A stretch of DNA of 56,748 bases from positions 1-56,748 of the IMG/VR virus record IMGVR_UViG_3300030329_001316. The stretch is one strand, 5' to 3'. The position numbers were made by a program, and so were the translations under genes. This stretch comes from a virus. Lineage: Duplodnaviria > Caudoviricetes. Each line of letters starts with the position of its first letter. Position 1 is the stretch's first letter. The notes under the pieces were generated by a model, which saw only the letters and a list, made by a program, of their open reading frames with translations, had not been told where the DNA came from and made no database searches. Of the stretch, positions 12,625-46,785 are shown piece after piece.

Positions 12625-12809
12625 TGTCAGGTTTTGGAAAAATAGTCGCTGGATATATATTCAACGATGAAATGAAAGATAAGATGATTAAGAAAATGAA
12701 TGAGAATGTAGATATTCCATTTATTTCAGAGAAAACAGAAGAAAAAATATTAGATGCTATTTGGGATTCTGTTGAAGAAGTAGTAAAAGAAGCTTTAATA
12801 GACGATTAA
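12624..12809 (+). CDS. Hypothetical protein ('NENVDIPFISEKTEEKI' family)
   Basis: TAATG coupled on both sides. Confidence 0.6.
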   Translation: MSGFGKIVAGYIFNDEMKDKMIKKMNENVDIPFISEKTEEKILDAIWDSVEEVVKEALIDD

Positions 12810-26800: not shown

Positions 26801-29800
26801 TTTAATACTGCTTTAGGTAGGCAAACTAATGAAACTGAAATGGTATCTTTATCTGAGTTCAGCCCTATTAAATCTGATAAAGCAAATGGTTATACTGTTA
26901 GGTTGCTTGAACATTCTCATCTTGGGCCTACAGAAAAAGCTGTTGCTCAAGCTTATAATCAGAGAGTTAGGGAAATTCATAGAAATTCAAAAACTGAATT
27001 AGCTGGAAACTTAGTTAACTTAAATGAAACTAATAGGATTTTCTTTAGAAATAAAGAAACTTTTAAAGTTATAGAGCAGAAGATGCAAAATGCGGACGCT
27101 ATGTCTAGTGAATCAGCTAGAAAAATATTAGTAGATGCTATTAATGCTATTGAAGGTTCAAGTACCTTTAAAGATATATTAGGTAATATAAGTTCTGATA
27201 ATTACAAAGATCCAGGAGCTAGAAAATACTTATCTCAATTGTTATCTCAAATGGATATACTTAAAAAAGTAAATAGAAATGGTCAGGATATTTGGACTAT
27301 TGATCAAACTAAAATTGATAATAAAAAAACAAGAGAAGAAATTTTAAAGTCTTTAAGAAATTATGGTGTAAACTTTAATAAGATAGAGCAAATAGTAGGT
27401 AATGCTAGAAAATATATTGATGAACAAATAGGCAGTCAAATAGGTTATTATGGAGATAATTCAGGTATAACTATTGATGGTTTCTTTAAAAAGTATTTTG
27501 CTAAAGATAGCCCTTATAACACAGATGTCGAATATGATTTAGTTAGAGATAATTTTATAAAGAATAAACTATATAATGATCCCATTGGTGAAAAGCCAGG
27601 TGAATTAAATAAAGACTTCTTTAGAGAGATTACTGATCGGTTGTCTTATAAAGAGGCTGACACTTTTAACGAATTATCTTGGTCTAAAAAAGGTGAAGTT
27701 GTTAGAGACGTTATGCAAATAGTTGATAACTATACTCAGTCAGAATCTTTTGAAGTATTTACATTCAATAGAGGTAATTTTGAAGCCAACAAAGTGAAGA
27801 AAAGTGGGTTTAGAAACCCATTAACAGACTTTTATTCAGAAATGGAATTGGGTATGCTCGGTTATTTAGACGGAGTTACATTTGCTGACATTGTTATTGC
27901 AGACAATTTTAAACCTTTGCAACGTATCGATATATTTGAAGCTAAGGCCAATCAAGAATTACTAGACCCTAAATTAATAGATATAAGAAACGAAAGAATA
28001 AAGGCTGTAAATAAAGAAATAGACGCTAAAAATATGTGGAAGTTTGTTTTAGGCAACTCTAAACAAGTTGTTTTATTTCCCAAAAGTAATTATAAAGAAA
28101 TCAATGAAGCGTTTAAAGAAGTTTATAAAAGAAATGTAAAAGATTTAGTAGACTCAAATGGAAGACCAAGATTAGGTTTTGAAAGAGCATATGATAAATT
28201 AGAAGCGTTACATAATAGAGTTTTAAAATCAACCGAGTTTGATTTAAATGTTCATACAGAAGCTTTAAGAGTTATGATTTTTGATAAGTTTTTAAAAGGT
28301 AGCCAAAGAAATGATTTTGTTAAATACTTAAATGCTGGTAAAGATGGTACAATAGAGAAGATAGTAAAAAGATTTAATTTAATATGGACTCCTTCTGCGA
28401 AAAGAACTTCTAGGGAACATTTGGAAATTGTTAGAGATTTCGTAAAGAATAATAATGTTTTTTCAGCTAAAGATAAAGTTATTATGGATAAGTATTTAGG
28501 TAGAGAACCTGGGAAAGAATATGGTGTTGCAGTAATAAATGATGTTGATCCACAATTTACAGCTGGAGAATCTTATACTAAAACATATTCTCAACAAGCT
28601 CAGTTTGAATCTTTTGTTAATAAGTATAAAAAAATGTGGAAAGACAATGGTATTAAACCACCTGAGTTTTCTGATTATACTGGAAATGCTAAAGAAGTTT
28701 CAACTTATGATAGTATAACCTTTATATCTAAAGATTTAGCAAGGTTTTTATCAATTGTATCAGGTAATAAGAGTAAGAGCGTATTTAAGCCTATTGTAAG
28801 CTCTTATGGTGAAAATACATACCTTTTTGGAAAGACTGTATTTGTGTATGACCCAAATCTAAATCCTTTATTTTCTAAAAGAGCAAATAGAGACCTTGAT
28901 ATGATCATGATGGGTACTGCAGATAAATTAAAATCTTTCTCTGAAAATTATTCAGAACTTACCCCTCAGGAATTACTTGATGGTGCAACAGTTAAAAACA
29001 TAATGAATATTCCTTTAGAGTCAGTTGGTATAGTTAAAGTTCCAGATAAAATAATACCTTCTAAACTTTCTGTAACAATACTACAAAATCAAATGAATGA
29101 TGCTGAAGTTAATGCTGTATATAAAGATTATCATAAGAGAGATTTAGAGAACGCAGTTGATATGATTAATGAGGTTTTAAGTAGGCCTTCATTTGAGGCT
29201 GAAGCTTTAAAATTATTAAGAGGCATGTCTGAACAAGATATGTATGAAATGATTTCTAATGGTGGGGCTGGTGAGCAGTTAGGGACTCTAATGAGTTATT
29301 TATCTATAGCTGGAGAATATGCTAGACCTTCTGCTATGGGGCCTGATATGCTTATGAATCAACTTAAAAAAGGATTAATTGATCAAGCTCTTGCTCCTTA
29401 TACTCAAAAAGATAATTCTACTGTTAAGACTAATTGGGGTCAAAAAATGGTACTATCTAAATCACCTTTTTATGAAGGCGCTAACGCTTTAGATCCAACT
29501 ATGGTTTCTAGTGATGGAAGAATTATATCTTTTGGAGAAACAGTACTAGCTCATTCTGCTAGAGGAGGTAATATTGAATTTGATGGTGCTAAGAAGATAT
29601 TTCTTAGAAGTAATAAAATGGAAAATGGTGAGTTTAAAAGTATTCCTGCAAAAGAAAAGGTAATTGAAATTGTTGGAAAAGAAATGGGTGAATTAGTTTG
29701 GAATAAAATGGCTCATGCTGAAGGGGATGCTTTAGGACAATTATTTGATTTTATAAAAGTTGCTGCTCCTGATTATCAAATTGAAATTCAATTTTTAAGA

Positions 29801-32608
29801 TACCCAAGAACTAAACCAAATGATTTTACTATATTAAGATTAAAAGATTTCTTATCTAGGGATGCTGGTAATCAAATGATATTAAACCCAATGGATGTTT
29901 GGAGAGTTTTTGAAGGTGATTATGATGTTGATATGGGTGATACTTTCTGGGGGACTACTAAAGAAATGCAAAGACATGCTGTAAGAGGGACATCTTATGG
30001 TATTACTGGAACTAATACTGACGGTATAGAGGCTATGAGTTCTAATATAGAACTTGCACCTACTGATCTTGTAAAAGGTAGGGAGAATTGGGAAAATTAC
30101 GATGCTAACGTTAGGATTATGGAGAAAGCTATTGGTCAGGTTCAAAATTTAACTGCTCCTTTAAATCATTTAAGTAATAAAGCTGTTGTTAGAGCTGACG
30201 GTAGAAAAGTTTTATTAAAGTTTCCTAGTGAAGTGCCAGGAGTTCGATATGAAATAGAATTAAATTTTGATTCAAAAGAATTTAAACAGTATATGGCTCA
30301 AAATTCTCAAGAAATTATAGATTTATTAAGAATTGACGGTTATGGTAAAACTTCTCGTAAAATACTATTTCCTGAAATGGAAGGTTCAGTTACTGCTGAA
30401 ACAGTAAATCAACAAGAAGTTGGATACAGAAATCAGGGAAGTCAAAATGATTTATCAACAAAGGTTCCTTTTAGAGCTTTTGTTAAGAGAAAAGTTAATG
30501 AAGCAACTGGTGAGGTGTTACCTAATTCAGAAGGCTTTAAAAATGATATTCCATTAGAACACTATGATGTTTTGGCAATAGAAGCACTTATTAATCATTA
30601 TAATAAACTACCAAGCGTTATGCCTGGAAGACAAAAATTCGGAGCTGAAGGTAAAAGAAGTGTTACTTATCAAGATTTATTAACTACATGGGAGAGTTAT
30701 GCTGGGGCATCTAGAAATATAGATGATGTAATATTTAAAGCTGTTTATTACCATAGAGGTGAGTCTGGTGAATACACATATAAACATAATACAGATTTAA
30801 TGAATAGATTGTTTGGGGGTGAAGGCAGATTATTAAAAGAAGTTAATTCTAAAAAGCAAGGATTTGAAGATCAAACTTATTTATGGAGAGCAGGCACTCT
30901 TGTTCCAAACAAAATGAAAGAAAACTATATAAATGCTACTGAAACAATGTCTGAAACAGGTTCATTTGCAGAAAGAGCTTTAAAGACTATATATAGAAAT
31001 CCATTAGGAGGCTCAGTAGAAAAGCATCTTATTTCTGGTGAAAATTTAAGAAGATATTTATACGTTGAAGATGTGTTATTAAATGGTAATGAAGTTGATG
31101 GAGCTTCTGTTGATAACGTTATTGCTTTACTTCCTCAAATGATAAAAGATATTAAAAAAGGTAGATCTAATATAATAAGATTAAAGAGAACTGCTGCTAA
31201 AGTTGCTGCTTCAGATAGAAAGCCTCAAGCTAAAAAGTATATATTAGAGAAGATTAATAGCCAAATAGAGCAATATGAAGAATTGTTAAAACCTTTATTA
31301 ACAAAAGAGTATAAAAAGAATCCTACAATAAAGAATTTACCAGATTTTAATCTTGTTGATATAACTACTAATGAAGATATATTAGAACAAACATCTCAAG
31401 CTTTTGCTATATGGAATTTATGGGGAATGACTCATAAACAGGGTGGAAAATTAAGTGGTATAGATGGTTATATTAAAAGAATGCAATCAAGTTACAAATC
31501 TCAATATAAAACACTATTTAATAGCGCAGGATTAGAACAGTTAGCGGGGAAACGTTTACGTGATTCCCAATTAACTGAGTATTTATTATCACCAAAAGAT
31601 ATAGAAACAATAGAAACGCAGATATATAAAGATATGTATACTGGTTTTACAAAATATGGACAAGCATTTTTATATAGGTTCGTTGGTTCAAACTTTAGAG
31701 TAAGTCAAAATGGTATAGGGGTTTATAATGGAAGACCTATTCCTTTATTCACTAAATCAAATACTAATTATAAAAGAATGATTAAATTTTTAGTTAAGTT
31801 GAGAAATAAGCAGATAGATGGAATGGATCCAAAGGTTGCTGATGATTTATTTATAAAAAAAGTAGATGATATAATTAAACAGGTAGCTAAGCAAGATTAC
31901 TTATGGAGATCTTTCTTCCAAAGAAAGTCACATTTAGAAGATATACCTGTTCAAGAGATGCATATGTTCCATATGGCTAGAAATAATCCTGAGTATAATA
32001 GTAGGCATTTACAAATGTTCCAAAGATATACTGCTTCACCTATAGCAAGAATATACGATAGTAGAACTTCTGCAGGTATGGGGAGAGATTGGGATAAATC
32101 GATGTCTTTCTTTAGAGATTTAATTAATGAAGCTGGTTTAGATGTGTCAAAAGATAAAGTAGAAACAGCAGTAAGGACCTTATCTTATATACAAGAATTA
32201 GAAATAAACAATATGTATATGACTCCATTTAAATATCTAAATTTAATGCAATCTATAGACCCTAAAATAAGGTCTGTAGTTAATAATGTTTTCCCTGGTT
32301 CAGTTAGCCATAAGAACGGTATAGAGCCAGCATTAAGGAATAAATTACAATATAATGATTTCTTTGCTCTAATGGGTGGAGGTGTTATGAATGGTCATGA
32401 TGGTATGACGTTTAATCCTTCATTCGGCTATAATAAGTATACATATTCAACTATTAAAAGACTTATAACGCAAGGTCAGTCAGTTATGAAATCTAATACT
32501 GGAACTAGATCATCAGAAGATATTAGAGATAATATTATAGTAAAAGAAATAAAAGATGAGGCATTAAAATCGAAAGATCAAAAACGAAGGGAGAATTGCG
32601 CTAAATAA
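23834..32608 (+). CDS. Giant virion protein with double-psi beta-barrel DNA-dependent RNA polymerase (crAss-like vRNAP)
   Basis: R1989-Y-P followed 40 aa later by G-D2029-Y-D-V-D (DxDxD); upstream 'YDSITFIS...FKPIV...GKTVF...GTADK' resembling the beta-type barrel lysines. Confidence 0.75.
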   Translation: MSYLDALNTLETLQDNQSNAPIDNWTPQSYFQQEGYDTSAYDQLLAEGRSAGDNITDFVGSALWNITDMATFGMADYFNLDQAIMGGEFEDVFTDDTYSEAEKLAFGGGLPSTASSYGASVGTVASFMLPFKYPKIPGVATRIPVAPQAITGQFVSQPAARGVARMLPENWFKGGVGIKGVTPVSQAKKATEISKKAGLEGNIAANNFNQQLSRGLFDKVSRARYDKTISNPANFVKGAKDFIEEAVAQKIRQGVITQKQGKAMVEMWSKYYSKRPIQDFIDVFSTRFPGTTGWGLGSIFHEALMFGSMDGIRERFHSWDEDRPYDFHAPAHGAGLGAAFGGMKLVLPKLGLGFTQASAKSMFGKDALGRSDFRAGMSAYWKPEKLLKDKSLHELRTMSKWFGNDKRFGVDGVYSAKIKIDNVSMNFNFSRPQAEARRFLRKLGLEVTEENQKFIIKEALKHQGKSLGRDMMKAALSEKWNSLSFVHAGVGSAIMNWQELGNLYQNGWDGVNKQDFLFNMILGGWLNRHGYARRKDYNEARMKRLRFGLENMGVNMKYLGEVIPSYSAARDNHMDPFSYDTRLKRIAEKMDNMGMSVENIENINNPLPLGETSVAFSKRDLSLFKQIYKLYAMSGQKKGVAREYENISEKDALEIQRTFQKEFGVKTLYGAQEIFLSTVNKAEDAMTESIVATGAEILNNKKKGIDIKPESSIVPKEINVDWKLQEAIETGKFDHIIGEGKKNLTEGERVEILNEMDMAVNEIRNFIVENQRLDGRNISKEPFYIDKSNFESIYQAVKGNERLVQEKMGTSSVKFRFSDMFGMAQQINIAKGKKMINNIINQFNKNVNPNWSEIEAEIIKSGLFKKDGIKQTIIKDMSTLPIIDGKTLVDKNGDTSRLNELQLFRNFINQILAAQGYPVSENIKKADGKYEHTTTVQQLTDLKNYLKSKGIPVDARFIDTIGHEVIFDIVKRNVEGSQLSMGDLNFVMTFNTALGRQTNETEMVSLSEFSPIKSDKANGYTVRLLEHSHLGPTEKAVAQAYNQRVREIHRNSKTELAGNLVNLNETNRIFFRNKETFKVIEQKMQNADAMSSESARKILVDAINAIEGSSTFKDILGNISSDNYKDPGARKYLSQLLSQMDILKKVNRNGQDIWTIDQTKIDNKKTREEILKSLRNYGVNFNKIEQIVGNARKYIDEQIGSQIGYYGDNSGITIDGFFKKYFAKDSPYNTDVEYDLVRDNFIKNKLYNDPIGEKPGELNKDFFREITDRLSYKEADTFNELSWSKKGEVVRDVMQIVDNYTQSESFEVFTFNRGNFEANKVKKSGFRNPLTDFYSEMELGMLGYLDGVTFADIVIADNFKPLQRIDIFEAKANQELLDPKLIDIRNERIKAVNKEIDAKNMWKFVLGNSKQVVLFPKSNYKEINEAFKEVYKRNVKDLVDSNGRPRLGFERAYDKLEALHNRVLKSTEFDLNVHTEALRVMIFDKFLKGSQRNDFVKYLNAGKDGTIEKIVKRFNLIWTPSAKRTSREHLEIVRDFVKNNNVFSAKDKVIMDKYLGREPGKEYGVAVINDVDPQFTAGESYTKTYSQQAQFESFVNKYKKMWKDNGIKPPEFSDYTGNAKEVSTYDSITFISKDLARFLSIVSGNKSKSVFKPIVSSYGENTYLFGKTVFVYDPNLNPLFSKRANRDLDMIMMGTADKLKSFSENYSELTPQELLDGATVKNIMNIPLESVGIVKVPDKIIPSKLSVTILQNQMNDAEVNAVYKDYHKRDLENAVDMINEVLSRPSFEAEALKLLRGMSEQDMYEMISNGGAGEQLGTLMSYLSIAGEYARPSAMGPDMLMNQLKKGLIDQALAPYTQKDNSTVKTNWGQKMVLSKSPFYEGANALDPTMVSSDGRIISFGETVLAHSARGGNIEFDGAKKIFLRSNKMENGEFKSIPAKEKVIEIVGKEMGELVWNKMAHAEGDALGQLFDFIKVAAPDYQIEIQFLRYPRTKPNDFTILRLKDFLSRDAGNQMILNPMDVWRVFEGDYDVDMGDTFWGTTKEMQRHAVRGTSYGITGTNTDGIEAMSSNIELAPTDLVKGRENWENYDANVRIMEKAIGQVQNLTAPLNHLSNKAVVRADGRKVLLKFPSEVPGVRYEIELNFDSKEFKQYMAQNSQEIIDLLRIDGYGKTSRKILFPEMEGSVTAETVNQQEVGYRNQGSQNDLSTKVPFRAFVKRKVNEATGEVLPNSEGFKNDIPLEHYDVLAIEALINHYNKLPSVMPGRQKFGAEGKRSVTYQDLLTTWESYAGASRNIDDVIFKAVYYHRGESGEYTYKHNTDLMNRLFGGEGRLLKEVNSKKQGFEDQTYLWRAGTLVPNKMKENYINATETMSETGSFAERALKTIYRNPLGGSVEKHLISGENLRRYLYVEDVLLNGNEVDGASVDNVIALLPQMIKDIKKGRSNIIRLKRTAAKVAASDRKPQAKKYILEKINSQIEQYEELLKPLLTKEYKKNPTIKNLPDFNLVDITTNEDILEQTSQAFAIWNLWGMTHKQGGKLSGIDGYIKRMQSSYKSQYKTLFNSAGLEQLAGKRLRDSQLTEYLLSPKDIETIETQIYKDMYTGFTKYGQAFLYRFVGSNFRVSQNGIGVYNGRPIPLFTKSNTNYKRMIKFLVKLRNKQIDGMDPKVADDLFIKKVDDIIKQVAKQDYLWRSFFQRKSHLEDIPVQEMHMFHMARNNPEYNSRHLQMFQRYTASPIARIYDSRTSAGMGRDWDKSMSFFRDLINEAGLDVSKDKVETAVRTLSYIQELEINNMYMTPFKYLNLMQSIDPKIRSVVNNVFPGSVSHKNGIEPALRNKLQYNDFFALMGGGVMNGHDGMTFNPSFGYNKYTYSTIKRLITQGQSVMKSNTGTRSSEDIRDNIIVKEIKDEALKSKDQKRRENCAK

Positions 32609-37248: not shown

Positions 37249-39006
37249 CTAACTTGTTTTCTCTATTCTAACGTTATTAACACTTAATCTAGCATATAAA
37301 TGTTCTTTTTCTCTATTCTTATCAGATTTAATATCAATCATTTCAACTAAACCTGTTTCCTTATTCTTAAAAGGTTTTAGAGATATAAGTTTATTAGCAT
37401 TATACGCTATTCTAAACGAACCTCTAGAAGACGCTATATCCATACCTTCTTTGAAGGCTGCTTTACTTACTTCACTTACAGCAAATACTATAACATTTTG
37501 TCTTACTGCAAGTTCCATAATAGCTTGAGAAGCTTCTTCAACTTTCATGTTGTTATCTTTCTGTTTGCTCTTAAATAGCCCCAAATGATCAATAATTACT
37601 ATTTCTGGCTTAACAGGTAGCATTGTGATCCTTCTTTCTAATTCATGGGCATATGGAGCTGAATAGTCAACAGTAAGCCATTCAAAGCGTTTATCCATAC
37701 CATTTTTCATCTGTTTGTAATGTTCAGATAATTGCTGTTCATCCCATCCCATTTCTATTTGAACAAATCTAGACCATATTTGTCTTGGAGACATCTCCAT
37801 TTCAACAAAATACGTTGGTCTTTTGAAGTAATTTACCCAATTTTGAAGCAACATAGTCTTCATACTAGCAGGTGGAGCTTGTAATATAACTGTCTCACCT
37901 GGATATACTGGGAAACTTTGACCATATGGCTCACCTAGGTTAAGAGGTTTAAGATCCTGAGCGTAGAAGTTTATAAGTTCGTTCTCCATACTACTAGAAT
38001 CCATCATATTTTCACCCTTTATACCTCTATGTAAGGTACATTTAGAGTCACAATAAAACTTTATAACTGGATCATCACCACCATATCTATAACCTTGACC
38101 ATCATGTCCAGTATAACAACCTTCTATTATACCTTCCATTTCTTCAGGTTTAAATGGTTCGTCATCTAAACTTACTTTCTGTCTCCAATTTTCCATAATT
38201 AATCTTACTATATCTTCAGTAAAGTTCCATCTTAAGTGTGATGCTAACCTTAAAGCCACCATATGACGTTTACCCTTAGGTGCTCCATCCATCATTTTCT
38301 GTATACATGTAGTATTTACAGGGTCTCTACTATCTTTAACTTTTATGGGTGTATTTTCTTTAGGTTTTTCTTTATCTAATACATCAAATACTTCATTGTT
38401 ACACTCTAAAGTATGTTCTAATTCTATATCTCTTGGCTCTTTACACCATTTGTTAATAGTTCTTTCTAACACACTATTTTCATACAATGCTTTTTGTGGA
38501 AATGGAGTCTTCCATAAACCAGACTTAGTATTTTTAGTATTTGGTACACGTATTAATCTAGATTTATCAGTAACAGATGGATCAGCATACTCAAATATAC
38601 CATGTTTAGTAAGCTCTTCTTTAACTCTTATATGTAAATTCTTACTAGGTTTCCATTTAAAAGCTGATTCTGATATATGTATATGAAATCCTCTACCACT
38701 AAAGTAAACATAGTATGGAACAAATAGTTCATCTAAGCGTACAAGCAATGCTGCAGTCTTTTGTGATGCTTCCCAAACACTTTCACCATCTACATCTAAT
38801 ATAAACTCATTAGGCATATATATTAAACCATCATATCCAGATATAGTGTTATTTTGACTATAATACTCTAATACAGATTCATCATAATTATATAAAGACA
38901 TGAATGTATCTGAATCCATGCCTTGTAATTCTATTAATTCTTCTTCTCTTTGGAAATTATGTCTATTAGTAACTCCAAAAGCTACTTCTCTTATCATTTT
39001 AACCAT
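37249..39006 (-). CDS. Primase-helicase: AEP primase-polymerase + PriCT-like region + SF4 (DnaB-like) helicase
   Basis: AEP motifs 'LDVDG', 'FSGRGFHIH', 'D...RLIRVPNT'; helicase 'APPASMKT', 'EMEMS', 'IIDHL', 'RGS', 'KNR'. Confidence 0.85.
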   Translation of the reverse strand: MVKMIREVAFGVTNRHNFQREEELIELQGMDSDTFMSLYNYDESVLEYYSQNNTISGYDGLIYMPNEFILDVDGESVWEASQKTAALLVRLDELFVPYYVYFSGRGFHIHISESAFKWKPSKNLHIRVKEELTKHGIFEYADPSVTDKSRLIRVPNTKNTKSGLWKTPFPQKALYENSVLERTINKWCKEPRDIELEHTLECNNEVFDVLDKEKPKENTPIKVKDSRDPVNTTCIQKMMDGAPKGKRHMVALRLASHLRWNFTEDIVRLIMENWRQKVSLDDEPFKPEEMEGIIEGCYTGHDGQGYRYGGDDPVIKFYCDSKCTLHRGIKGENMMDSSSMENELINFYAQDLKPLNLGEPYGQSFPVYPGETVILQAPPASMKTMLLQNWVNYFKRPTYFVEMEMSPRQIWSRFVQIEMGWDEQQLSEHYKQMKNGMDKRFEWLTVDYSAPYAHELERRITMLPVKPEIVIIDHLGLFKSKQKDNNMKVEEASQAIMELAVRQNVIVFAVSEVSKAAFKEGMDIASSRGSFRIAYNANKLISLKPFKNKETGLVEMIDIKSDKNREKEHLYARLSVNNVRIEKTS

Positions 39007-39094
39007 CTAAATCCTCCCAATTCTCATGTACTAACCATATAAATAATATTGATATTACCCATATTACTGCAAGAATACCTATAAAAGTTATCAT
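38999..39094 (-). CDS. Tiny membrane peptide (31 aa)
   Basis: MITFIGILAVIWVISILFIWLVHENWEDLDG; AAGGAGG RBS; overlaps the primase start. Confidence 0.5.
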   Translation of the reverse strand: MITFIGILAVIWVISILFIWLVHENWEDLDG

Positions 39095-39252
39095 TTGCCC
39101 TCCTTTCTGAGCCTCATTTGATGCTCATATCTAGCTCTTTTGATCTTCATACGTATAGTTAAGTGGGTGTAATTATCACCCTTTAAGTTTTGCCCTAATT
39201 TTAGTTCTTTAGGGTCTATATTAATAAAATGCATAAACTCTGTTGCTCTCAT
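39091..39252 (-). CDS. Small basic hypothetical protein (53 aa)
   Basis: MRATEFMHFINIDPKELKLGQNLKGDNYTHLTIRMKIKRARYEHQMRLRKEGK; ATGA overlaps at both ends. Confidence 0.55.
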   Translation of the reverse strand: MRATEFMHFINIDPKELKLGQNLKGDNYTHLTIRMKIKRARYEHQMRLRKEGK

Positions 39253-39314
39253 AATTCCCCTCTAATTAATTCATCAATTAAAAACCAAATTAGTATTATT
39301 AAACAAAATATCAC
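39249..39314 (-). CDS. Tiny hydrophobic peptide (21 aa, GTG start)
   Basis: MIFCLIILIWFLIDELIRGEL; AAGGAGG RBS; ATGA coupling. Confidence 0.4.
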   Translation of the reverse strand: MIFCLIILIWFLIDELIRGEL

Positions 39315-39328
39315 ATATCCTCCTTGTA

Positions 39329-39358
39329 TATAGGGAGAGTTGTTATACCCTCCCTATA
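39329..39358 (-). terminator. Stem-loop downstream of SSB
   Basis: TATAGGGAG...CTCCCTATA inverted repeat. Confidence 0.5.
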
Positions 39359-39377
39359 ATTAACGATTACCTACTCA

Positions 39378-39914
39378 CTAGAAAGGTATATCGTCACTCT
39401 CGGAGGACTCAGAAGTTGTTGGTTCTTCTGATTTCTTGTTTTCCACTTTGGGTAAAACAAATGCCTTGTAATAGCTTTCGGCTTTACTTTTCCAATAATC
39501 AACATCAGATTGATTAAAAGATTCAGCAGCATTTTCAAACACTGTAGGAGCTGTTCTATTTAATATCTTTGAATATTTACCATCTTTATATAGATAAACA
39601 TTCATTTTCTTGCCTATTAAAGCTTCAGGGCTATCATCCATCTTTAATACTTTAGTTCCATCAGGACCTTCTAATGCGTTACTTATACCTGCATTAGCGA
39701 ATCTATACATTTGACCGATAGCAAATTCTTCACCATCAGCGCCAGTTTTAGCATAAACTCTCATATTAAAGTTCTCTGGATAGTCATCAAAGTATACATC
39801 TATGCATTTATTACCATTCCATTCAGCATATTCTGCTTTAGAAACTAATAATTCATGCCATCCAGTGTTATATTGGTTGTTACCACCACCAGATTTAATT
39901 GTTAAAGTTCTCAT
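39378..39914 (-). CDS. Single-stranded DNA-binding protein-like
   Basis: Acidic tail ending DDIPF; lies between ERF recombinase and primase-helicase. Confidence 0.7.
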   Translation of the reverse strand: MRTLTIKSGGGNNQYNTGWHELLVSKAEYAEWNGNKCIDVYFDDYPENFNMRVYAKTGADGEEFAIGQMYRFANAGISNALEGPDGTKVLKMDDSPEALIGKKMNVYLYKDGKYSKILNRTAPTVFENAAESFNQSDVDYWKSKAESYYKAFVLPKVENKKSEEPTTSESSESDDIPF

Positions 39915-39929
39915 TTATTCTCCTTTTAG

Positions 39930-40433
39930 TTAACTAATAGATTGAGCATCATCATCATATTGTGCTATACCTACCATAGCAGATAATCCATATCTTCTAC
40001 CATAAGTTACAGCTGCTCCAACGCCTTGTGCGTCTACTTTAGCCAACGGAAGTTTTATTTTACTTCTCATCCACTGACCTGATGCATGCATTAATGTTGT
40101 GGTTACACATACAGCGCCTTTAATTACTTCATTACCTTGACTAACAGATAATCCATTTTTAGATAAATATGGAAATGAAGATTTAATTACTGCATGTAAG
40201 TCTGCATAACTAGACTTAAAGAATGGATTTGTACTTTCTTTCTTTGCACCTTCCATTTCAGACTGAGCTTTAGCTAATGCTTCAGCTAGTTTATCTATTT
40301 CAGGCGATTTCCATTCATCATGTCTTCTATCATGTGCTGTGTCAAAAGATTTCTCTTCTGCTTCATTTTTGGCCTTTGCTTCTAATATATCTTTAGCAAT
40401 GCCATTTTGTTTAGAAACGTCAATATTATTCAC
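39930..40433 (-). CDS. erf: ERF-family ssDNA annealing protein (start probably GTG 40433)
   Basis: 'ALAKAQ...NPFFKSSYADL', 'QGVGAAVTYGRRYGLSAMVGIAQYDDDA'; AGGAGG upstream of the GTG. Confidence 0.9.
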   Translation of the reverse strand: MNNIDVSKQNGIAKDILEAKAKNEAEEKSFDTAHDRRHDEWKSPEIDKLAEALAKAQSEMEGAKKESTNPFFKSSYADLHAVIKSSFPYLSKNGLSVSQGNEVIKGAVCVTTTLMHASGQWMRSKIKLPLAKVDAQGVGAAVTYGRRYGLSAMVGIAQYDDDAQSIS

Positions 40434-40453
40434 GAACTTCCTCCTATTTGAAT

Positions 40454-40480
40454 GAATGGGGCAGATAGTCCACCCCATTC
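40454..40480 (-). promoter_or_regulatory. Stem-loop between E1 and ERF genes
   Basis: GAATGGGG...CCCCATTC inverted repeat; a second one, CCTTCG..CGAAGG, near 40504-40517. Confidence 0.45.
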
Positions 40481-40526
40481 TGTGTGCTATACGTTTAAGA
40501 AACCTTCGAATCGAAGGGCTTATAAT

Positions 40527-41186
40527 TTAAGAAACTAATTTCTTTTTATCAAGTATTAATGTTGAAAAGTTGAAAATTATTTCCTTAAAGTAAGGTTGTT
40601 TCATAACTATGTTCTTAATAGAATTAGATATAAAACTTCCACTCATATTACTACAATAAGATGTAGCTTTACGAGTGCATGGTTCAGGATCAGAATCTTC
40701 ATCAGAATACCAATCCTTCTCATACTTTTTAACAGTAATATTATCATATATATACTGTTGATATTGCTCTGCACCCATCCTACCATCTATAACAAATGAT
40801 GGTTTATCAGGGCATTGTGTTATCAATTTCACTATTTCCATACGAGCAGACATACTGTCTAATCCAAGTACTAATATGTCATCTTTCGTGCCTTCATAGT
40901 ATTTAAATTTACTATTTGAAAGCTCAACCTCAATAGAGCATTCTATTTTTTTAATATGTGTATATAAAGCATCTACTTTAGTTTTACCAATATCTTCTTC
41001 TACATATTGACTAACACCTACGTTTTCTATTCCTACTTTATCAAAATCATATAGATAGAAACTATTAGCACCAAGTCTTGCTAATTGTGTGGCTACGGAG
41101 CTTCCAATAGCCCCGCAACCTACAATGTGAAACTTAATACCCGATATATCTGCTATATCTTGACTTCTCATATTTCTCATAGCCAC
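40527..41186 (-). CDS. ThiF/MoeB-family E1-like ubiquitin-activating enzyme
   Basis: GCGAIGS nucleotide loop, 'YDFDKV..EN', 'IGKTKVDAL', 'GLDSMSAR', 'IDGRMG', candidate catalytic Cys170 in 'PEPCT'. Confidence 0.92.
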   Translation of the reverse strand: MAMRNMRSQDIADISGIKFHIVGCGAIGSSVATQLARLGANSFYLYDFDKVGIENVGVSQYVEEDIGKTKVDALYTHIKKIECSIEVELSNSKFKYYEGTKDDILVLGLDSMSARMEIVKLITQCPDKPSFVIDGRMGAEQYQQYIYDNITVKKYEKDWYSDEDSDPEPCTRKATSYCSNMSGSFISNSIKNIVMKQPYFKEIIFNFSTLILDKKKLVS

Positions 41187-42142
41187 ATACCTCCATAACT
41201 TTGGTTATAACATGCACTATCTATTAAAGCCTCAGCTATTGATTGATACTTAGGATCAATAACATGTATTAACTCATATGGTTCAGAATCCATACCAAGA
41301 AACTCTTTTAATTCTGCTTTATTAAGTTTATCTATCTCTATACCATAAGGTTCTAGCTGTTCATTAGTATGATTTATAGCTGTTTTAAACTTATGCATAT
41401 TCCATGCACCAGTATTTACTTGTCTAATATATTCAGCTATTTTACCCATTGCATACTCCCATTTAGCTTCAAATGTAGCAGCTTCTGCTTCTGTTGGTTC
41501 AATTTGTGTACAATCATCCTCTAATAGTTTGTAATTACCAGACATACCTCTACTATCATACCAACTATGTAAACTTAATTGTTTACCATTAGATGGTAGT
41601 TTAGTATAGCCAGTTTGATAAGAACTTAATGATCTAACTCTACACTTAGCTTTAACTTCAGTTACTATTTCAAGAGGTATTTCTACATCTTCTTTACCAA
41701 CTATCTCAAGTTCAACATCTTGATGGACCTCTAATGGTTTCCATACAGATATTCGACACTTATATTCTTCTTTAAGATTAACAACAAGAGCAAATGATAG
41801 ATCAGATTCTCCTTCACCATATTCATCTATACTAGATAGATCAGTACCACTCCAGAATGCTCCCATTGTGTGATGACTATGCCACCAACAGAATCTAAAG
41901 TTAGTATCCTTGTATTTTACAGCCATTTGTGTATAGTATTTAGCCAAATCTTCTTTATCAAGGTCACAAGTAGTGGCACCTATCTCTTGATTCATGATTT
42001 GAGGGTCTTCTATCCACCAATCACCATCTTTGTCTTGAGTAACTACACTCATACCACCTATTTCAGCTTTTTCACCATGATAAGCAGCTTTTGCATAGTT
42101 TATTATCTTATCCCAACAGTCTTTTAAGATATATACTTTCAT
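41177..42142 (-). CDS. JAB/JAMM (MPN+) metallopeptidase with C-terminal extension
   Basis: E27 ('EIGG') and H88-S-H90-x7-S98-x2-D101 ('WHSHHTMGAFWSGTD'). Confidence 0.9.
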   Translation of the reverse strand: MKVYILKDCWDKIINYAKAAYHGEKAEIGGMSVVTQDKDGDWWIEDPQIMNQEIGATTCDLDKEDLAKYYTQMAVKYKDTNFRFCWWHSHHTMGAFWSGTDLSSIDEYGEGESDLSFALVVNLKEEYKCRISVWKPLEVHQDVELEIVGKEDVEIPLEIVTEVKAKCRVRSLSSYQTGYTKLPSNGKQLSLHSWYDSRGMSGNYKLLEDDCTQIEPTEAEAATFEAKWEYAMGKIAEYIRQVNTGAWNMHKFKTAINHTNEQLEPYGIEIDKLNKAELKEFLGMDSEPYELIHVIDPKYQSIAEALIDSACYNQSYGGMWL

Positions 42143-43470
42143 TCTTCCTCCTCATTACGTTCGTTAATATGTTGTCTAAGTTCTTCAAGGTACGCCTCAT
42201 CCAGGCTTTCTTCCTGCTCACGATCACCTTGTATTGGCTGAAAACCACTATTTATATTACTTGTTGATGTGTTTACACCACCCATTCTAGTAGCCCATTG
42301 CAAGGTCATTTGTTCAGCTTGTTCTGGTGTTACTGGTTCAGGATGAGCATATTTATATTTCTCACATTGAGATCTAAATGTACATTCTTGTACATCACAG
42401 TAATCATTATGTCCATCTGGTTCATAATTACATTGATCTATATTATTTGTGCCAAACACTTTTCTGTATTCTTCAGATAGTTTAGCTGGTTCACCATGAT
42501 ACATCTGTTTAATATTGTTATGCGGACCTGTTATATTAGTATAAGTTGTAGCCCAATTAACAGATTGTAATACAAATGAAGCCATATCATACCTATTTAA
42601 TGCATTATATATATCATTTGCTTGATCACCATAACATACATTATTACCAAATATACCTGCTCTATAACCTCTACTACCAGATATAAATGGATATGCTAGA
42701 TAACCTTTCTCATCTGGTTGATCTACTTGACCTAATGTTTGAACACTAAAGCTTGGACAATCATAATTAGCATGTCTGGTCATAGTTCTAAGTGGATATG
42801 TAATATTATTAATATACAAATCTGTGCTACATTCTATATTTTCTATATGTTTAGCTTCACGTTCACTTTCTCTACCTGATGTCATATATACTTTCATTAT
42901 ATCTGGTCTTATTCTAAGTGTACTCACTAACATATATCTTTGACTAGAACGTGCATTTGGATGAACAAATAATTGATGATACATTTCTTGCATTATATCT
43001 ATATTATCTATCAATTCATCAGCCATTTGTATCTTTTCAGACATATAATTAGCATACAAGTTCTTTCTTTCAACAAGAATATCTGGGTCATCTAACCATA
43101 CTTCGCCTTGATATCTTAAATGATATAATATATTATCAATTTCTCTTAAAGATGCTTTTATTCTCTCCCATGAATGATTCTTAAACCAATCTTCTCTACT
43201 TAAATAATTATACATACCACTAGGTTTTCTTCTAAATCCAAGACCTCTCATCATAAGTTCAGCTACTCTTTCATAAGAACCACGCTTCCACTTAAATGTT
43301 TTAGTAATTTCTAAGTCACCTCTATATCTACTATTAAATTGTTGTAATTTTTCCATTACTTCAGCTTGAGGGCCATAATATACATGTTCCCCAAGATCTT
43401 CTACTTCTATCTCTTCTATGCATTGTTCTATTGTTCCATCTACAATGCAGTCATAATCTCTAAAATCCAT
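42139..43470 (-). CDS. Putative E2-like (UBC-fold) conjugating protein with C-terminal Cys cluster
   Basis: 'AYPFIS...NNVC279YGD...IYNAL...NWATTY' resembles prokaryotic E2 HPxI...CxG plus helices; lies between Ubl and JAB. Confidence 0.6.
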   Translation of the reverse strand: MDFRDYDCIVDGTIEQCIEEIEVEDLGEHVYYGPQAEVMEKLQQFNSRYRGDLEITKTFKWKRGSYERVAELMMRGLGFRRKPSGMYNYLSREDWFKNHSWERIKASLREIDNILYHLRYQGEVWLDDPDILVERKNLYANYMSEKIQMADELIDNIDIMQEMYHQLFVHPNARSSQRYMLVSTLRIRPDIMKVYMTSGRESEREAKHIENIECSTDLYINNITYPLRTMTRHANYDCPSFSVQTLGQVDQPDEKGYLAYPFISGSRGYRAGIFGNNVCYGDQANDIYNALNRYDMASFVLQSVNWATTYTNITGPHNNIKQMYHGEPAKLSEEYRKVFGTNNIDQCNYEPDGHNDYCDVQECTFRSQCEKYKYAHPEPVTPEQAEQMTLQWATRMGGVNTSTSNINSGFQPIQGDREQEESLDEAYLEELRQHINERNEEEE

Positions 43471-43496
43471 ATACCCTCCAAGGTTAATAAGTTAAT

Positions 43497-43562
43497 CCAG
43501 ACAGAAGCATTCTTAGTGTGTCGTTGTCAAATTCGCCATTTCTCACTAGTGCTCCTGCCTGG
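43497..43562 (-). promoter_or_regulatory. Structured RNA element between Ubl and E2-like genes
   Basis: On the - strand CCAGGCAGGAGCA pairs with TGCTTCTGTCTGG (13 bp with G-U); inner TAGTG/CACTA stem. Confidence 0.6.
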
Positions 43563-43579
43563 TACGTTATAACGTAATT

Positions 43580-43798
43580 TTACTGATCACCACCTGATTT
43601 GTTGTTATTAACAGCTGCAACAATATCACCTTCTTCAATAGCATGTGTATTTGTTACAGATACTCCATTAACAGCAACAGATGAGCCAGAAGCTATATCA
43701 TCTGGAAACTCATTTCTTAGTTGTTCAACAGTATCAGCGTTAGTTTGTCTCTCTACAAAGCCGCCACCTTGTAGAAATTTGATTGTTTTAGTTGCCAT
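43580..43798 (-). CDS. Ubiquitin-like beta-grasp protein (ThiS/MoaD/Ub fold), 72 aa, ending GG-DQ
   Basis: 'TVEQLR', 'VAVNG', 'IEEGDIV', 'KSGG-DQ'; AAGGAGG RBS before MATKTIK. Confidence 0.85.
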   Translation of the reverse strand: MATKTIKFLQGGGFVERQTNADTVEQLRNEFPDDIASGSSVAVNGVSVTNTHAIEEGDIVAAVNNNKSGGDQ

Positions 43799-43994
43799 GT
43801 GGGCCTCCTTTTTCATATGATTGGATTGATTTGTACTCATCAGCTAACTGATCAAAATAGTCATCAATTAGTTTGTAGTTATTTACTATTTGTTTCTCAA
43901 CTGTTTCTTTTACTTCACCATTTAGGTATTTAACAGTTTTCTTTAATATTACTGTATTTGCTTCAATATTGCCTATATCCATGAGATAGCCCAT
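43788..43994 (-). CDS. Hypothetical protein
   Basis: ORF track; overlaps the Ubl start. Confidence 0.5.
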   Translation of the reverse strand: MGYLMDIGNIEANTVILKKTVKYLNGEVKETVEKQIVNNYKLIDDYFDQLADEYKSIQSYEKGGPHGN

Positions 43995-44098
43995 TTAAAT
44001 ATATAATACCAACATCCTAGACTAAATGTCACTATAACTGCATATATTAACCAATTAGGCAATTTCATTATAAAATCTACTAGCCTGCTATCTTTCAT
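43973..44098 (-). CDS. Small membrane protein (41 aa, not in ORF track)
   Basis: MKDSRLVDFIMKLPNWLIYAVIVTFSLGCWYYIFKWAISWI; ATGA overlap with upstream gene. Confidence 0.55.
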   Translation of the reverse strand: MKDSRLVDFIMKLPNWLIYAVIVTFSLGCWYYIFKWAISWI

Positions 44099-44340
44099 AA
44101 ACCCATCCTCCCTGACATTCTCTTAACAATATCATTTAGTTTATCTACTTCATCACATGCATATTGACAATTATTGGCTACAATTTCAAGTTTAGCACTT
44201 AAATCTATAATTTCTTCTCTTGTTACCTTATCACCAGAGTTTATAGCTTTGTTTGCTTTACTAAAGAAAGATTTCTTCTGTTCTTCCTTCTTTTCATTTA
44301 ATTCCTTAGTTTTATCTTCATTTTTACTGAAAATACCCAT
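44095..44340 (-). CDS. Hypothetical coiled-coil protein
   Basis: AAGGAGG RBS; ends 'RMSGRMGL'. Confidence 0.6.
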   Translation of the reverse strand: MGIFSKNEDKTKELNEKKEEQKKSFFSKANKAINSGDKVTREEIIDLSAKLEIVANNCQYACDEVDKLNDIVKRMSGRMGL

Positions 44341-44467
44341 TATGCCTCCTTTATATCGATTAATTCATCGATTAGTTTATTTTCTTTTATTCTAAGACTA
44401 GCTTGCTTATTTTTAAGTTCTATAAGATCTTTTATCACATCTTCTTCAGTTCTTATAGGTGTAAATG

Positions 44468-44983
44468 TTAACATATCTCAAATCCTCCTGATTCTAGACA
44501 AAACTTAGCAAAATTCTCTACATTATCTTGTGAAAATGGATAACTAGACATAAATCTCTTATTTTCATCATCATCTTTAGCTAAATTCTCATTTCTGGTC
44601 TTAATATGCTTCTCCCATCTCTTAACAGTGCCATCTTTGAGTAATATTTCTAGTTTTGTGCCTATTTTAGCAGCTGTTTCTTGATCTATTAGCCTGCCAT
44701 CATTCCAATTTCCACCTTCTATTTGCTTTTCAGTCATAAAATCACTACATTGCATACAAACAAAGTCCCATAATGGTCTCCACCACCATACATTATTACG
44801 AAAATATACTCCAGGATTAGCTTTATGATAGTCATCCATCTCATTAAAGTATTTTTTACGCTTTTCTTCGTCTTCACTCTTCCACATATCACTATTTTCT
44901 CGATAGTATTTATACTCAGTATCTGGTTTGTGTATTATTGGGTTAACACCCCCTAAATCAAAGCCCATTTTAATATCCTCCAT
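44468..44983 (-). CDS. Conserved phage hypothetical protein ('YFRNNVWWWRPLW...FCLESGGFEIC')
   Basis: Distinctive motifs; probable start MGFDL after GGAGG. Confidence 0.65.
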   Translation of the reverse strand: MEDIKMGFDLGGVNPIIHKPDTEYKYYRENSDMWKSEDEEKRKKYFNEMDDYHKANPGVYFRNNVWWWRPLWDFVCMQCSDFMTEKQIEGGNWNDGRLIDQETAAKIGTKLEILLKDGTVKRWEKHIKTRNENLAKDDDENKRFMSSYPFSQDNVENFAKFCLESGGFEIC

Positions 44984-45046
44984 ATTTTTTCTATGTTTTT
45001 TCTTATTTTCATGATATTTATAGTAAATGATATATATATCTCAGCA

Positions 45047-45250
45047 TAATAGGGCTAATTGACCCTCGTTAGTGTATTAGTCTCTAAACGACTAATTGGC
45101 TGAAACCCACACAATGAAGTGTTATATCAGCTTTACTAGTATATAGGTACATTGCTACACTCGCCTGTCACTACAGCCCTATTAAATATAACAGCCTACT
45201 CGACCACTTTTTCAGGTCCTTTTGCCTCACTACCCATTTCCCTCGGCTGT
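45047..45250 (-). ncRNA. Candidate structured RNA
   Basis: 10-bp closing stem TAATAGGGCT/AGCCCTATTA enclosing ATTAGTC/GACTAAT and GCTGA/TCAGC stems; adjacent ACAGCC/GGCTGT stem. Confidence 0.45.
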
Positions 45251-45258
45251 CATGTCTC

Positions 45259-45420
45259 CTACCAATTCTCTGCTTGTTCTACTACTTCTCTAATCTCTAT
45301 CTCACACTCTTGACATACAGGATCATCTTTATCATGCCAATTACTATCACATACACCACATAATCTACCACCTAAGCCAACCATAAGTTTGTATACTACT
45401 TCATTTATCTGAGTTGCCAT
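45259..45420 (-). CDS. Small zinc-finger protein (53 aa)
   Basis: MATQINEVVYKLMVGLGGRLCGVCDSNWHDKDDPVCQECEIEIREVVEQAENW; GGAGG RBS. Confidence 0.65.
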   Translation of the reverse strand: MATQINEVVYKLMVGLGGRLCGVCDSNWHDKDDPVCQECEIEIREVVEQAENW

Positions 45421-45577
45421 ACTTATCCTCCATGTATTGTTTTAGTCTCTTTTTAGTACTAAGATATTTTCTTACCATTTCAGTTCTATGTTTATCAGGT
45501 ATATTTCTATCACACCTATCACAGAATAGTTTTTGTAGAGATGTCATCTTATCACTACAATAGATACACTTCATCAT
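45401..45577 (-). CDS. Small zinc-finger protein (58 aa)
   Basis: MMKCIYCSDKMTSLQKLFCDRCDRNIPDKHRTEMVRKYLSTKKRLKQYMEDKYGNSDK; AAGGAG RBS. Confidence 0.65.
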   Translation of the reverse strand: MMKCIYCSDKMTSLQKLFCDRCDRNIPDKHRTEMVRKYLSTKKRLKQYMEDKYGNSDK

Positions 45578-45612
45578 ATCATCTCCTTATTGGTTAAGAG
45601 TTTAAATAATTA

Positions 45613-45810
45613 TTGAGCAGTTTGTAGGGGCTTTCAGCACAATTACATCTATCGCCATAGATAACTATCTAAAGCATGCTCAGGCTAGAGACTGTGGTTG
45701 GCGTCTCATCTCCGTATTAGGGAACCTTTTGAGTGTTTAACTCTAGGCATTCATTGCACTTTTAATGCTGACAGTTTGCGTTACTGCTTAACAATTACAC
45801 CTACGTACGA
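45613..45810 (-). ncRNA. Candidate structured RNA (~200 nt)
   Basis: No ORF; stems TGAGCA/TGCTCA, ATCTAT/ATAGAT, GAGAC/GTCTC, GAGT/ACTC, GCATT/AATGC, GTAGG/CCTAC. Confidence 0.4.
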
Positions 45811-45831
45811 AATCTTCACATTTAATTTATT

Positions 45832-46240
45832 GAGTTGTGGCGGGATTTGGGTTACCCGCATGCTACCATATTAATATTGGCAGTGTTTCATCTACAAGAG
45901 TGATCAAGTATGCTACTCCTATCTCCATTAGGGCTGGTCACCCCGATAGGTCGTCACATATGGCTAGTTAAACCATAGACTAAATAATGCATCATGCTTT
46001 AATGTAAGTCCTGCTTACCGTATACACATTGTCTATTTCTAGACTGATGCACCCACTGGACAAGGATTCCCTTATCTAATTATTTGGTACAACAACTGTT
46101 CTAGCTTCTACTAGTTCTATAACACCACTTGATGTTACAGCGAGCACTACCTCTAACAGTCTACCTGCACACTCCTTATCAGAATGCTCCACAGGTTTCA
46201 CATCGTTAATCCACAGGTGATCAGGCCTGTATCATAACTC
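45832..46240 (-). ncRNA. Candidate large multi-domain structured RNA (~410 nt)
   Basis: Ends pair (GAGTT/AACTC); nested stems ATCAAGT/ACTTGAT, TGCATCA/TGATGCA, GTAAG/CTTAC, GTCTA-GAAA-TAGAC (GNRA on - strand), ACAGG/CCTGT, GCGGG/CCCGC. Confidence 0.55.
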
Positions 46241-46485
46241 TCAAATCTATCTCATTATTCATTGTATTATGTTGGTCACTTATAATACATAGCTAGTGTA
46301 CTAATGTGCCGTTTGTTATCTTACTAATGTTTGGTATAAGTTTATATATATAATGTACACAGGCATACACGCACAGATACTAGCATGATTCTTCATTCTG
46401 TGTAAAAAGCAGTATCTTATACATATATACACTGTATACACTATAATGTTGTTAAATTGTTCATTAAAGGACGAAATGCTAGGTA

Positions 46486-46785
46486 TTAAGTACCCAGCAT
46501 CTCATCAACTTCAGACAACTCTTCACCAAGAGAGTCTATCGCTTCAGTAGTTGGATCAAGCAACTCTAAACCATGCTTAGCTGCTATGTTCACCACTACC
46601 TGGAAGTGAGTAGACCACTTCTGTAGTACCTGTCTTTGCGAAGGAGTCTGCGTTCTAAACACAGGATCCCAACCAGACTTAGTACCAGCAGTAGCTAACT
46701 CCTTGAACATCTTAGATAAAGTGCGTTCATACTCTGCAGCCAACACCTTATGTGCTGTCTTATGTTTAATTAATCCTCTTGACAT
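46486..46785 (-). CDS. Hypothetical protein, first gene of the early strand
   Basis: AAAGGAG RBS; 99 aa. Confidence 0.65.
   Translation of the reverse strand: MSRGLIKHKTAHKVLAAEYERTLSKMFKELATAGTKSGWDPVFRTQTPSQRQVLQKWSTHFQVVVNIAAKHGLELLDPTTEAIDSLGEELSEVDEMLGT

Follow-up and report, generated by a model that had tools for sequence, protein, structure and literature searches.

Why should a very small phage protein carry a pair of glycines close to its C-terminus and then cover them with two further residues? The question is raised by a complete viral record of 56,748 bp and 33% G+C (Duplodnaviria; Caudoviricetes; IMG/VR record IMGVR_UViG_3300030329_001316), the whole of which is called the window here. 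An open reading frame (ORF) of 72 amino acids (aa) on its minus strand, at 43580..43798, was read by a first-pass annotation, made from the sequence without database searches, as a ubiquitin-like protein (Ubl) that is produced as a blocked precursor and would need maturation by a JAB peptidase encoded nearby. We have followed up this proposal computationally. Taken as a whole, the explanation that the ORF encodes a phage Ubl precursor, which is trimmed by the JAB peptidase, activated by an E1-like enzyme and passed to an E2-like protein, appears to us reasonably probable. The trimming by JAB, taken by itself, is likely, and as to the purpose of the activated protein we lean modestly toward protein conjugation rather than sulfur transfer.

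The Ubl C-terminus and the JAB peptidase

Translation of the minus strand from the ATG at 43798 agrees with the end of the protein as it was first read: the frame closes with AAA TCA GGT GGT GAT CAG TAA, that is, ...K67-S68-G69-G70-D71-Q72-stop. The codons of K67-S68-G69-G70 lie at 43589..43600, Gly70 being the proposed mature C-terminus on grounds of conservation, and the tail codons GAT CAG (D71-Q72) lie at 43583..43588; the piece proposed to be lost on maturation amounts to 243.086 Da. Because most homologues are 72 aa long and start with MATK, 43580-43798 is the likely gene. Its ATG is preceded at a distance of 5 nucleotides (nt) by the ribosome-binding site AGGAGG (43804..43809, minus strand), and a longer frame of 86 aa from an ATG at 43840 was rejected as the real gene on the same two grounds.

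A word-indexed search returned 46 close relatives of the Ubl, all of them from marine or other metagenomes and none with a curated family; N65-N66-K67-S68-G69-G70 is invariant in a clean alignment of 27 full-length relatives. When 1.84 billion cluster representatives were searched with a profile (E <= 0.001), 82 matched, and C-terminal residues were counted in the 62 that reach at least profile position 69, the 20 shorter ones (fragments, chimeras, and repeat proteins) being left out. The glycine position reads GG in 57 of these distant relatives, GA in three, and AG and GV in one each, Lys stands at -4 in 61/62, and the consensus is [ND]K[ST]GG. The tail after the glycine has no residue in 16 sequences, one residue in 12, 2-10 residues in 20, and 12-97 residues in 14. 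Judging from these alignments, the conservation of Gly-Gly is well beyond chance, and a conserved GG with tails of 0-97 aa, 16 of 62 sequences ending at the glycine itself, is what one would expect of a Gly70 that serves as the functional C-terminus. Such a glycine pair, strictly conserved, closing the protein in a quarter of the family and followed by unrelated extensions in the rest, is the signature of a Ubl or a sulfur-carrier precursor.

The expectation that homologues would keep the glycine pair is thus borne out. Variable tails had been expected as well, and these are found between clades, where the extensions read C, CQ, SY, SSC, LLV, RSC, CK, and YK (C, SSC, LLV, CQ, and SY in the sister clade); the closest clade, in which this expectation fails, is discussed below. 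Errors of assembly or of reading frame may account for some of the long tails in metagenomic representatives. In an 83-aa metagenomic protein (P0155), the GPQAEV..FN motif typical of the E2-like protein's N-terminus is fused to the C-terminal half of a Ubl that ends NKTGG-Q; this protein may have arisen by misassembly or by natural recombination.

The JAB/JAMM metallopeptidase gene (41177..42142, minus strand) encodes a protein of 321 aa, the proposed maturase and a possible deconjugase, and its start overlaps the stop of the gene before it (ATGA). The protein carries the full JAMM set, namely E27 (codon 42062-42064), H88-S-H90, S98, and D101, with the motif HSHHTMGAFWSGTD at 41840-41881; E27 and H88, the two residues singled out for mutation in the first-pass annotation, are both part of this intact motif. 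The pattern HxHx7SxxD is kept in 28/28 JAB homologues from related loci. The Pfam Prok-JAB profile matches below its cut-off of 25 (E 9.7e-5, 22.7 bits), the PADLOC models of Cap3-type JAB proteins match with E 3.5e-8, and among PDB sequences the only matches have E > 0.2.

The JAB gene had been called adjacent to the Ubl gene. The linkage itself stands: 38 related IMG/VR loci were compared, of which 10 end before the JAB position, and the Ubl gene, a gene of 443 aa, the JAB gene, and the E1 gene are kept together in all 28 that extend far enough. Strict adjacency does not, as the 443-aa gene sits between Ubl and JAB.

A complex of JAB (residues 1-170), Ubl, and zinc was modeled in three runs, which gave a median score of 0.80 (0.88, 0.71, and 0.80), while the best control reached 0.00; in calibration, the mark was reached by 58/80 solved complexes and by 2/110 mismatched pairs. 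The runs share at least 89% of contacts, and partner confidence, given as the predicted local distance difference test (pLDDT), is at least 83. In the modeled interface, Ubl residues 59-72, that is, the C-terminal strand and the tail, face JAB catalytic residues 27, 29-30, 88, 90, and 98-101. The model supports binding of JAB to the Ubl, rather than showing it. Maturation by JAB, the core of the first reading, is therefore supported in silico by the GG/tail pattern, the JAMM motif, the synteny, the complex score of 0.80, and the precedent of the Bil and Bub systems. For the further suggestion that this maturation could act as a switch, we found no support in either direction.

Apart from its C-terminus, the Ubl has a G-G-G-F loop at residues 11-14 (43757-43768, minus strand), in which G11, G13, and F14 are invariant and G12 is kept in at least 90% of the close family. 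The loop falls inside the modeled JAB interface (Ubl residues 9-15).

The E1-like and E2-like proteins, the cassette, and its relatives

The gene of the ThiF-type E1-like adenylating enzyme (40527..41186, minus strand) has a GTG start, overlaps the JAB stop by 10 nt, and encodes 219 aa. Pfam ThiF matches well above its cut-off of 28.1 (E 2.5e-18, 66.6 bits), and the PADLOC models of Cap2-type E1-E2 proteins match with E 1.4e-16. The best NCBIfam model is ThiF PRK08644 (E 2.1e-21), accompanied by MoeB, all of these far below their cut-offs, and PDB sequences give weak N-terminal matches only, to TcdA, UBA5, MccB, and Cap2. G23, G25, D47, D49, K70, D110, R115, and C170 are invariant in 13/13 aligned E1 sequences, including those of crAss-like phages and of Flavobacterium phage FpV4; by analogy with E1 enzymes in general, we take these residues to be the ATP/Mg-binding set and, in Cys170, the catalytic cysteine of the crossover loop.

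The 443-aa gene (42139..43470, minus strand) is a probable E2-like transfer enzyme of the UBC/RWD fold, with an N-terminal helical domain and a C-terminal module of four cysteines, according to AlphaFold and VIA-align. Its product has 43 homologues and no match in Pfam, PHROG, PADLOC, or NCBIfam. The AlphaFold model has a pLDDT of 76.9 over the whole protein and of 81.8 over residues 125-340, which form the modeled core (42451..43098, minus strand). When this core was compared with known structures by VIA-align, 27 of the best 50 rows were E2 enzymes by title, among them BilB (8tyz_C, Z 5.3) and Cap2 (7to3_A, Z 4.8), and the whole-protein search was similar. The other rows of the best 50 include five Mediator entries, one SEA-complex entry, and actin-capping protein; judging from titles and chain identities, about 43 of the 50 are presumably UBC, UEV, or RWD proteins. 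From these models, a UBC/RWD (E2-like) fold of the core is probable, not secure.

Conservation points in the same direction. Cys279 (codon 42634-42636) is invariant in 25/25 sequences from both clades, at identities down to 22%, in the context V-C-[YV]-G-[DN], and a motif [FHY]-P-[YF]-I-S, here YPFIS at residues 260-264, is conserved in both clades 15 residues upstream. This motif resembles, in our view, the HPN motif of E2 enzymes, and Cys279, just before the helix that follows the sheet, presumably stands where E2 enzymes carry their catalytic cysteine, an assignment made by position. Cysteines 347, 358, 363, and 369 are invariant in the same 25 sequences.

In the C-terminal part of this protein, QWATRMGG (residues 391-398) is invariant in 32/32 main-clade homologues and is followed by a hypervariable acidic tail, and the model is disordered from residue 397 onward. 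The codons of R395-M-G-G398 (42277..42288, minus strand) might mark a second processing site; it is speculative that this region (42139-42288, residues 391-443) is a second site of JAB cleavage, or an activatable C-terminus like that of the cyclases in anti-phage signaling systems based on cyclic oligonucleotides (CBASS). Sister-clade E2-like proteins stop near the RMGG position without GG (...ATINAARRIQ*, ...LVNQGRR*).

The four genes run in the same direction on the minus strand, in the order Ubl (43798>43580), 443-aa gene (43470>42139), JAB (42142>41177), and E1 (41186>40527), the last three successively overlapping end to end. The cassette lies in a minus-strand block of early and replication genes, with small early genes on one side and genes for ERF, a single-stranded-DNA-binding (SSB)-like protein, and a primase-helicase after E1; terminase, portal, and head genes are on the plus strand. 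Two related loci (L016 7652-8521, L023 7673-8620) have a radical-SAM gene of the spore-photoproduct-lyase family (NCBIfam TIGR03886, E 2.7e-85) between their genes for the E2-like protein and JAB. This gene, absent from the present window and examined in those two loci, is probably an accessory gene of UV repair.

Outside the metagenomes, DNA and protein searches of 50,697 GenBank phage records with the cassette and the Ubl gave no match, and JAB gave one partial match. A comparison of the Ubl alignment with 185,579 species-representative bacterial and archaeal genomes, by a pattern-based method of limited reach, gave no relative. With E1, tblastn against GenBank phages gave 78 matches at 29-33% identity (E down to 3e-19, mostly with at least 80% query coverage), from phages of Flavobacterium psychrophilum and from crAss-like phages (Steigviridae, among them cultured phages of Bacteroides). 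In six records, DAC17, PhiCrAssBcn17, Kolpuevirus, cr111_1, bajarodcaudo virus, and Flavobacterium phage FpV4 (L040 1511-5642; L041 1595-5606; L042 3523-7643; L043 3481-7890; L044 3486-7734; L045 3619-7494), a similarly arranged series follows the primase, namely a 211-289-aa protein, an unknown protein of ~390-440 aa, a "metalloprotease" with a weak Prok-JAB match, and a "ThiF." The N-terminal ~85-105 residues of the first protein end ...NKKI[KR]SGA or ...KQVKSGG, after which ~120-205 further residues follow. These records label the parts singly, and none of the six annotates a ubiquitin-like protein or a linked system. The series seems to be this cassette again, with the Ubl extended much further. 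When the Ubl and E2-like families were compared with these counterparts profile to profile, the similarity was not significant (E 0.0088 over 31 columns; 0.17, 0.23, and 0.46), so that homology of the Ubl and of the E2-like protein across phage groups is unproven; what is demonstrable by sequence comparison is homology of E1 and, weakly, of JAB.

A few further features of the window may be mentioned. A scan of 39000-46500 for promoters and terminators found 39 promoters against 41.3 expected from shuffles, thus no excess, and no tRNA gene was found in the window. The cassette genes carry strong Shine-Dalgarno sites (AGGAGG at 43804-43809 and GGAGGG upstream of 43470); Bacteroidota, the hosts of the only cultured-phage relatives of the E1, rarely use such sites. 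ORFs of 2,924 aa (23834-32608, plus strand) and 1,360 aa (12809-16891, plus strand) in the structural region have no PADLOC match, the latter also none in PHROG, and a 465-aa protein of the structural block (22431-23828, plus strand) has a weak, probably spurious PADLOC match to pAgo (E 2.2e-4, 17.6 bits).

Proposed pathway and alternative readings

The conjugation explanation would run as follows. The Ubl would be made inactive, its reactive Gly70 capped by Asp71-Gln72, and the JAMM peptidase encoded two genes downstream would bind it and cut after Gly70. The 219-aa ThiF-type E1 would then adenylate the freed Gly70 carboxylate and probably hand the Ubl to its Cys170, from which the 443-aa protein would take it on Cys279 and, in the replication phase of infection, attach it to lysines of host or phage proteins. 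The tags may also be taken off again by JAB. All of these steps, from cleavage and adenylation to thioester transfer and conjugation, are inferred here, as are the targets.

Several observations weigh against this explanation. The family signal of the Ubl is below threshold (Pfam ThiS, E 0.0032, 18.4 bits, under the 22.5-bit cut-off); together with its nearest Atlas clusters, which are language-model neighbors of viral origin with 17-25% of members annotated PF02597 ThiS, and with a Ubl pLDDT of 84-92 within the complex runs, this is weak evidence of a beta-grasp fold, and the Ubl profile found nothing meaningful among PDB sequences. The tail of the closest clade is fixed, being DQ in 25/25 complete main-clade loci (DE and DI occur rarely in database proteins), and might have a function of its own. 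As for the enzymes, only the first half of the ThiF profile is matched in the E1 (residues 4-121), the best named relatives of which are sulfur-carrier ThiF enzymes, and the protein is one ThiF-type domain of 219 aa with nothing added, while the E1 of Bil systems has extra domains. Foldseek (E <= 0.001) found no PDB match for the model of the 443-aa protein or of its core, and the top VIA-align Z of 7.4 is middling by the tool's own warning. The complex runs used custom alignments and a riding zinc, unlike the calibration, and because JAB-Ubl complexes have already been solved (e.g., BilC-BilA; PMC10557695), the pass of the model may reflect likeness or memory.

Among the alternatives, the one that survives best, though we regard it as unlikely, is that the small protein is a sulfur carrier, trimmed by JAB, adenylated by E1, and thiocarboxylated at Gly70, with the 443-aa protein as the acceptor or insertion enzyme in thio-modification of nucleotides, DNA, tRNA, or a cofactor. 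The ThiS signal is the sole family signal of this ThiS/MoaD-like protein, two of its 46 close relatives are named "molybdopterin converting factor small subunit" in their sources, and ThiF and MoeB adenylyltransferases are the best NCBIfam matches of E1. In the sister clade, the last residue of the tail is often Cys (C, SSC), or the tail contains one (CQ), and the cassette lies among genes of DNA replication. JAB genes also occur in ThiS/MoaD sulfur-assimilation clusters, and JAB processing of fused ThiS/MoaD proteins has been predicted (Iyer et al., 2006; PMC1779556). Against this, the Pfam scan of nine cassette and flanking proteins detected no rhodanese, cysteine desulfurase, ThiG/ThiH, MoaE, or other sulfur-transfer domain, although the host could supply one. 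The E1 has no extra domain, its NCBIfam matches all remain far below their cut-offs, the 443-aa protein models as UBC/RWD, a scaffold of protein transfer, and the genes stand in the order known from the Bil operons, which conjugate.

Improbable, more so than the sulfur carrier, is that the tail is kept and the Ubl is never activated, so that the protein acts as a non-covalent adaptor or regulator, or JAB acts elsewhere (e.g., at RMGG), with GG retained for structure or binding. The DQ of the main clade, fixed as if selected, would fit this reading, and the invariant RMGG with the variable tail of the 443-aa protein offers JAB an alternative substrate. On the other hand, 16/62 relatives stop at the glycine and the tails of others share neither length nor sequence, the complex model lays the Ubl tail across the JAMM site, and an intact E1 is always co-encoded.

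Trimming by a host peptidase or by the E1 or E2-like proteins, JAB serving only for deconjugation as proposed for Cap3 in CBASS, is very improbable: general carboxypeptidases could presumably take tails of one or two residues, and Bub systems do split the roles, although there BubE deconjugates and JAB only matures the precursor (PMC11601596), but the tails reach 97 residues, and ~120-205 after KSG[AG] in the possible crAss-like and FpV4 counterparts, lengths which call for an endopeptidase that recognizes the Ubl, and in the complex model it is the precursor that fits, residues 71-72 being part of the interface.

Returning to the preferred explanation, in which the trimmed Ubl is conjugated, we put forward tentatively that marine lytic phages may use a full Ubl conjugation kit of their own in replication, its parts being a Ubl precursor, JAB as the maturase, a minimal E1, and an E2 of a new kind. 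If this is true, host or phage proteins would be tagged, for example to disarm host defenses or to regulate replication proteins, and ubiquitin-type tagging would be a weapon on both sides of the conflict between phage and bacterium; if the crAss-like and Flavobacterium counterparts are true ones, the same conjugation program would operate there. A bolder corollary is that JAB could act on a second substrate, ...TRMGG with its dispensable acidic tail, so that the E2-like protein would be activated at a glycine of its own, much like the CBASS cyclases. Conjugation is directly testable because culturable phage-host pairs exist. The K-S-G-G end also gives mass spectrometry a handle: the short tryptic remnant foreseen in the first-pass annotation for a cut after K67 is S-G-G, computed as +201.075 Da on the acceptor lysine (Lys+SGG).

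Comparison with known systems

The closest likeness is to Bil systems (BilABCD), especially the Type II system of Ensifer aridi. In the report on these (Chambers et al.; PMC10557695), the operon order bilA-bilB-bilC-bilD corresponds to Ubl, E2, JAB, and E1, Type II BilA has up to nine residues after a conserved glycine, and E. aridi BilC cuts BilA between Gly97 and Ala98, the uncut form not being adenylatable; twelve BilA homologues with overhangs of 2-9 aa are mentioned in a preprint (Hör et al., 10.1101/2023.09.04.556158). The same order is found here, although the second gene is no more than a probable E2. The Ubl likewise has a conserved C-terminal glycine with a short, non-conserved tail, there is no E3 gene, and BilB appears among the structures that match the core of the 443-aa protein; in Bil, JAB also trims before adenylation. 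The differences are of several kinds. The defense-island context with CapH/CapP is absent, and the cassette sits in a phage replication module. The architecture of the Bil E1, with inactive (IAD) and active (AAD) adenylation domains and a mobile CYS domain, is replaced by the single ThiF-like domain of 219 aa. The E2-like protein, at 443 aa, has extra N-terminal helical and C-terminal four-Cys parts and belongs to no sequence family, and the domain of the Ubl is ThiS-like, 70 residues long, and ends [ND]K[ST]GG. Among the matches listed, neither PADLOC nor NCBIfam contributed a Bil model. As far as can be inferred from this comparison, the cassette would work like a Bil system; we have not filed it as one because it is phage-borne and has a minimal E1 and an undescribed E2-like family with extra domains.

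In Type I Bub (BubCD/BubAB; PMC11601596), the JAB domain releases the Ubl from a Ubl-E2 fusion at a conserved glycine. The cut directly after the Ubl glycine is shared with our proposal, and an extension as large as a whole E2 parallels the long extensions of some relatives here. Bub differs in its oxyester (Tyr/Ser) intermediates, its fused Ubl-E2 and JAB-E1 proteins, and its DUF6527 serine protease. In the present cassette, the genes are separate, and Cys170 of E1 and Cys279 of the E2-like protein are invariant.

Type II CBASS provides the best PADLOC matches of E1 and JAB, in Cap2 and Cap3, respectively, and Cap2 (7to3_A) matches the E2-like core. E1 and the E2-like protein are encoded by separate genes here, however, and a dedicated Ubl stands in place of the C-terminus of the cyclase. 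Identity with CBASS was rejected, there being no PADLOC match to a CD-NTase or an effector in the 42 ORFs of the window that were scanned; nor did the other ORFs scanned match defense genes in PADLOC.

The JAMM-trimmed sulfur carriers QbsE/QbsD and CysO/Mec+ combine a ThiS-like protein with GG and a short tail, a ThiF-type E1, and a JAB that frees the glycine. The present cassette differs from such clusters by its E2-like protein, and no sulfur-transfer or acceptor enzyme was detected nearby. A phage example of a processed Ubl is TAPI of the tail-assembly genes of lambdoid and T1 phages, a ThiS/MoaD-like protein predicted to be released by the phage JAB-NlpC/P60 protein TAPK (Iyer et al., 2006; PMC1779556). 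TAPI is also phage-encoded, and beyond its conserved C-terminal glycine the sequence continues; it differs in belonging to a tail-assembly module without E1 or E2, whereas our cassette is in a replication module with both.

A literature search, in which supplementary tables and subscription journals could not be covered, yielded no account of a comparable phage-borne cassette. To our knowledge, bacterial Ubl tagging with E1, E2, and JAB has been demonstrated only as anti-phage defense, in Bil, Bub, and CBASS. Here it is the phage itself that would encode the tagging logic, including the capped precursor, and dozens of marine viral contigs retain the cassette. Bil and Bub have already made the mechanism known; what differs is the phage-borne, replication-module setting, the minimal E1, and the E2-like protein of an undescribed family. 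If the cassette does conjugate proteins, it would represent an offensive or regulatory use of ubiquitin-type chemistry by phages and would define both a minimal E1 and a new E2-like family.

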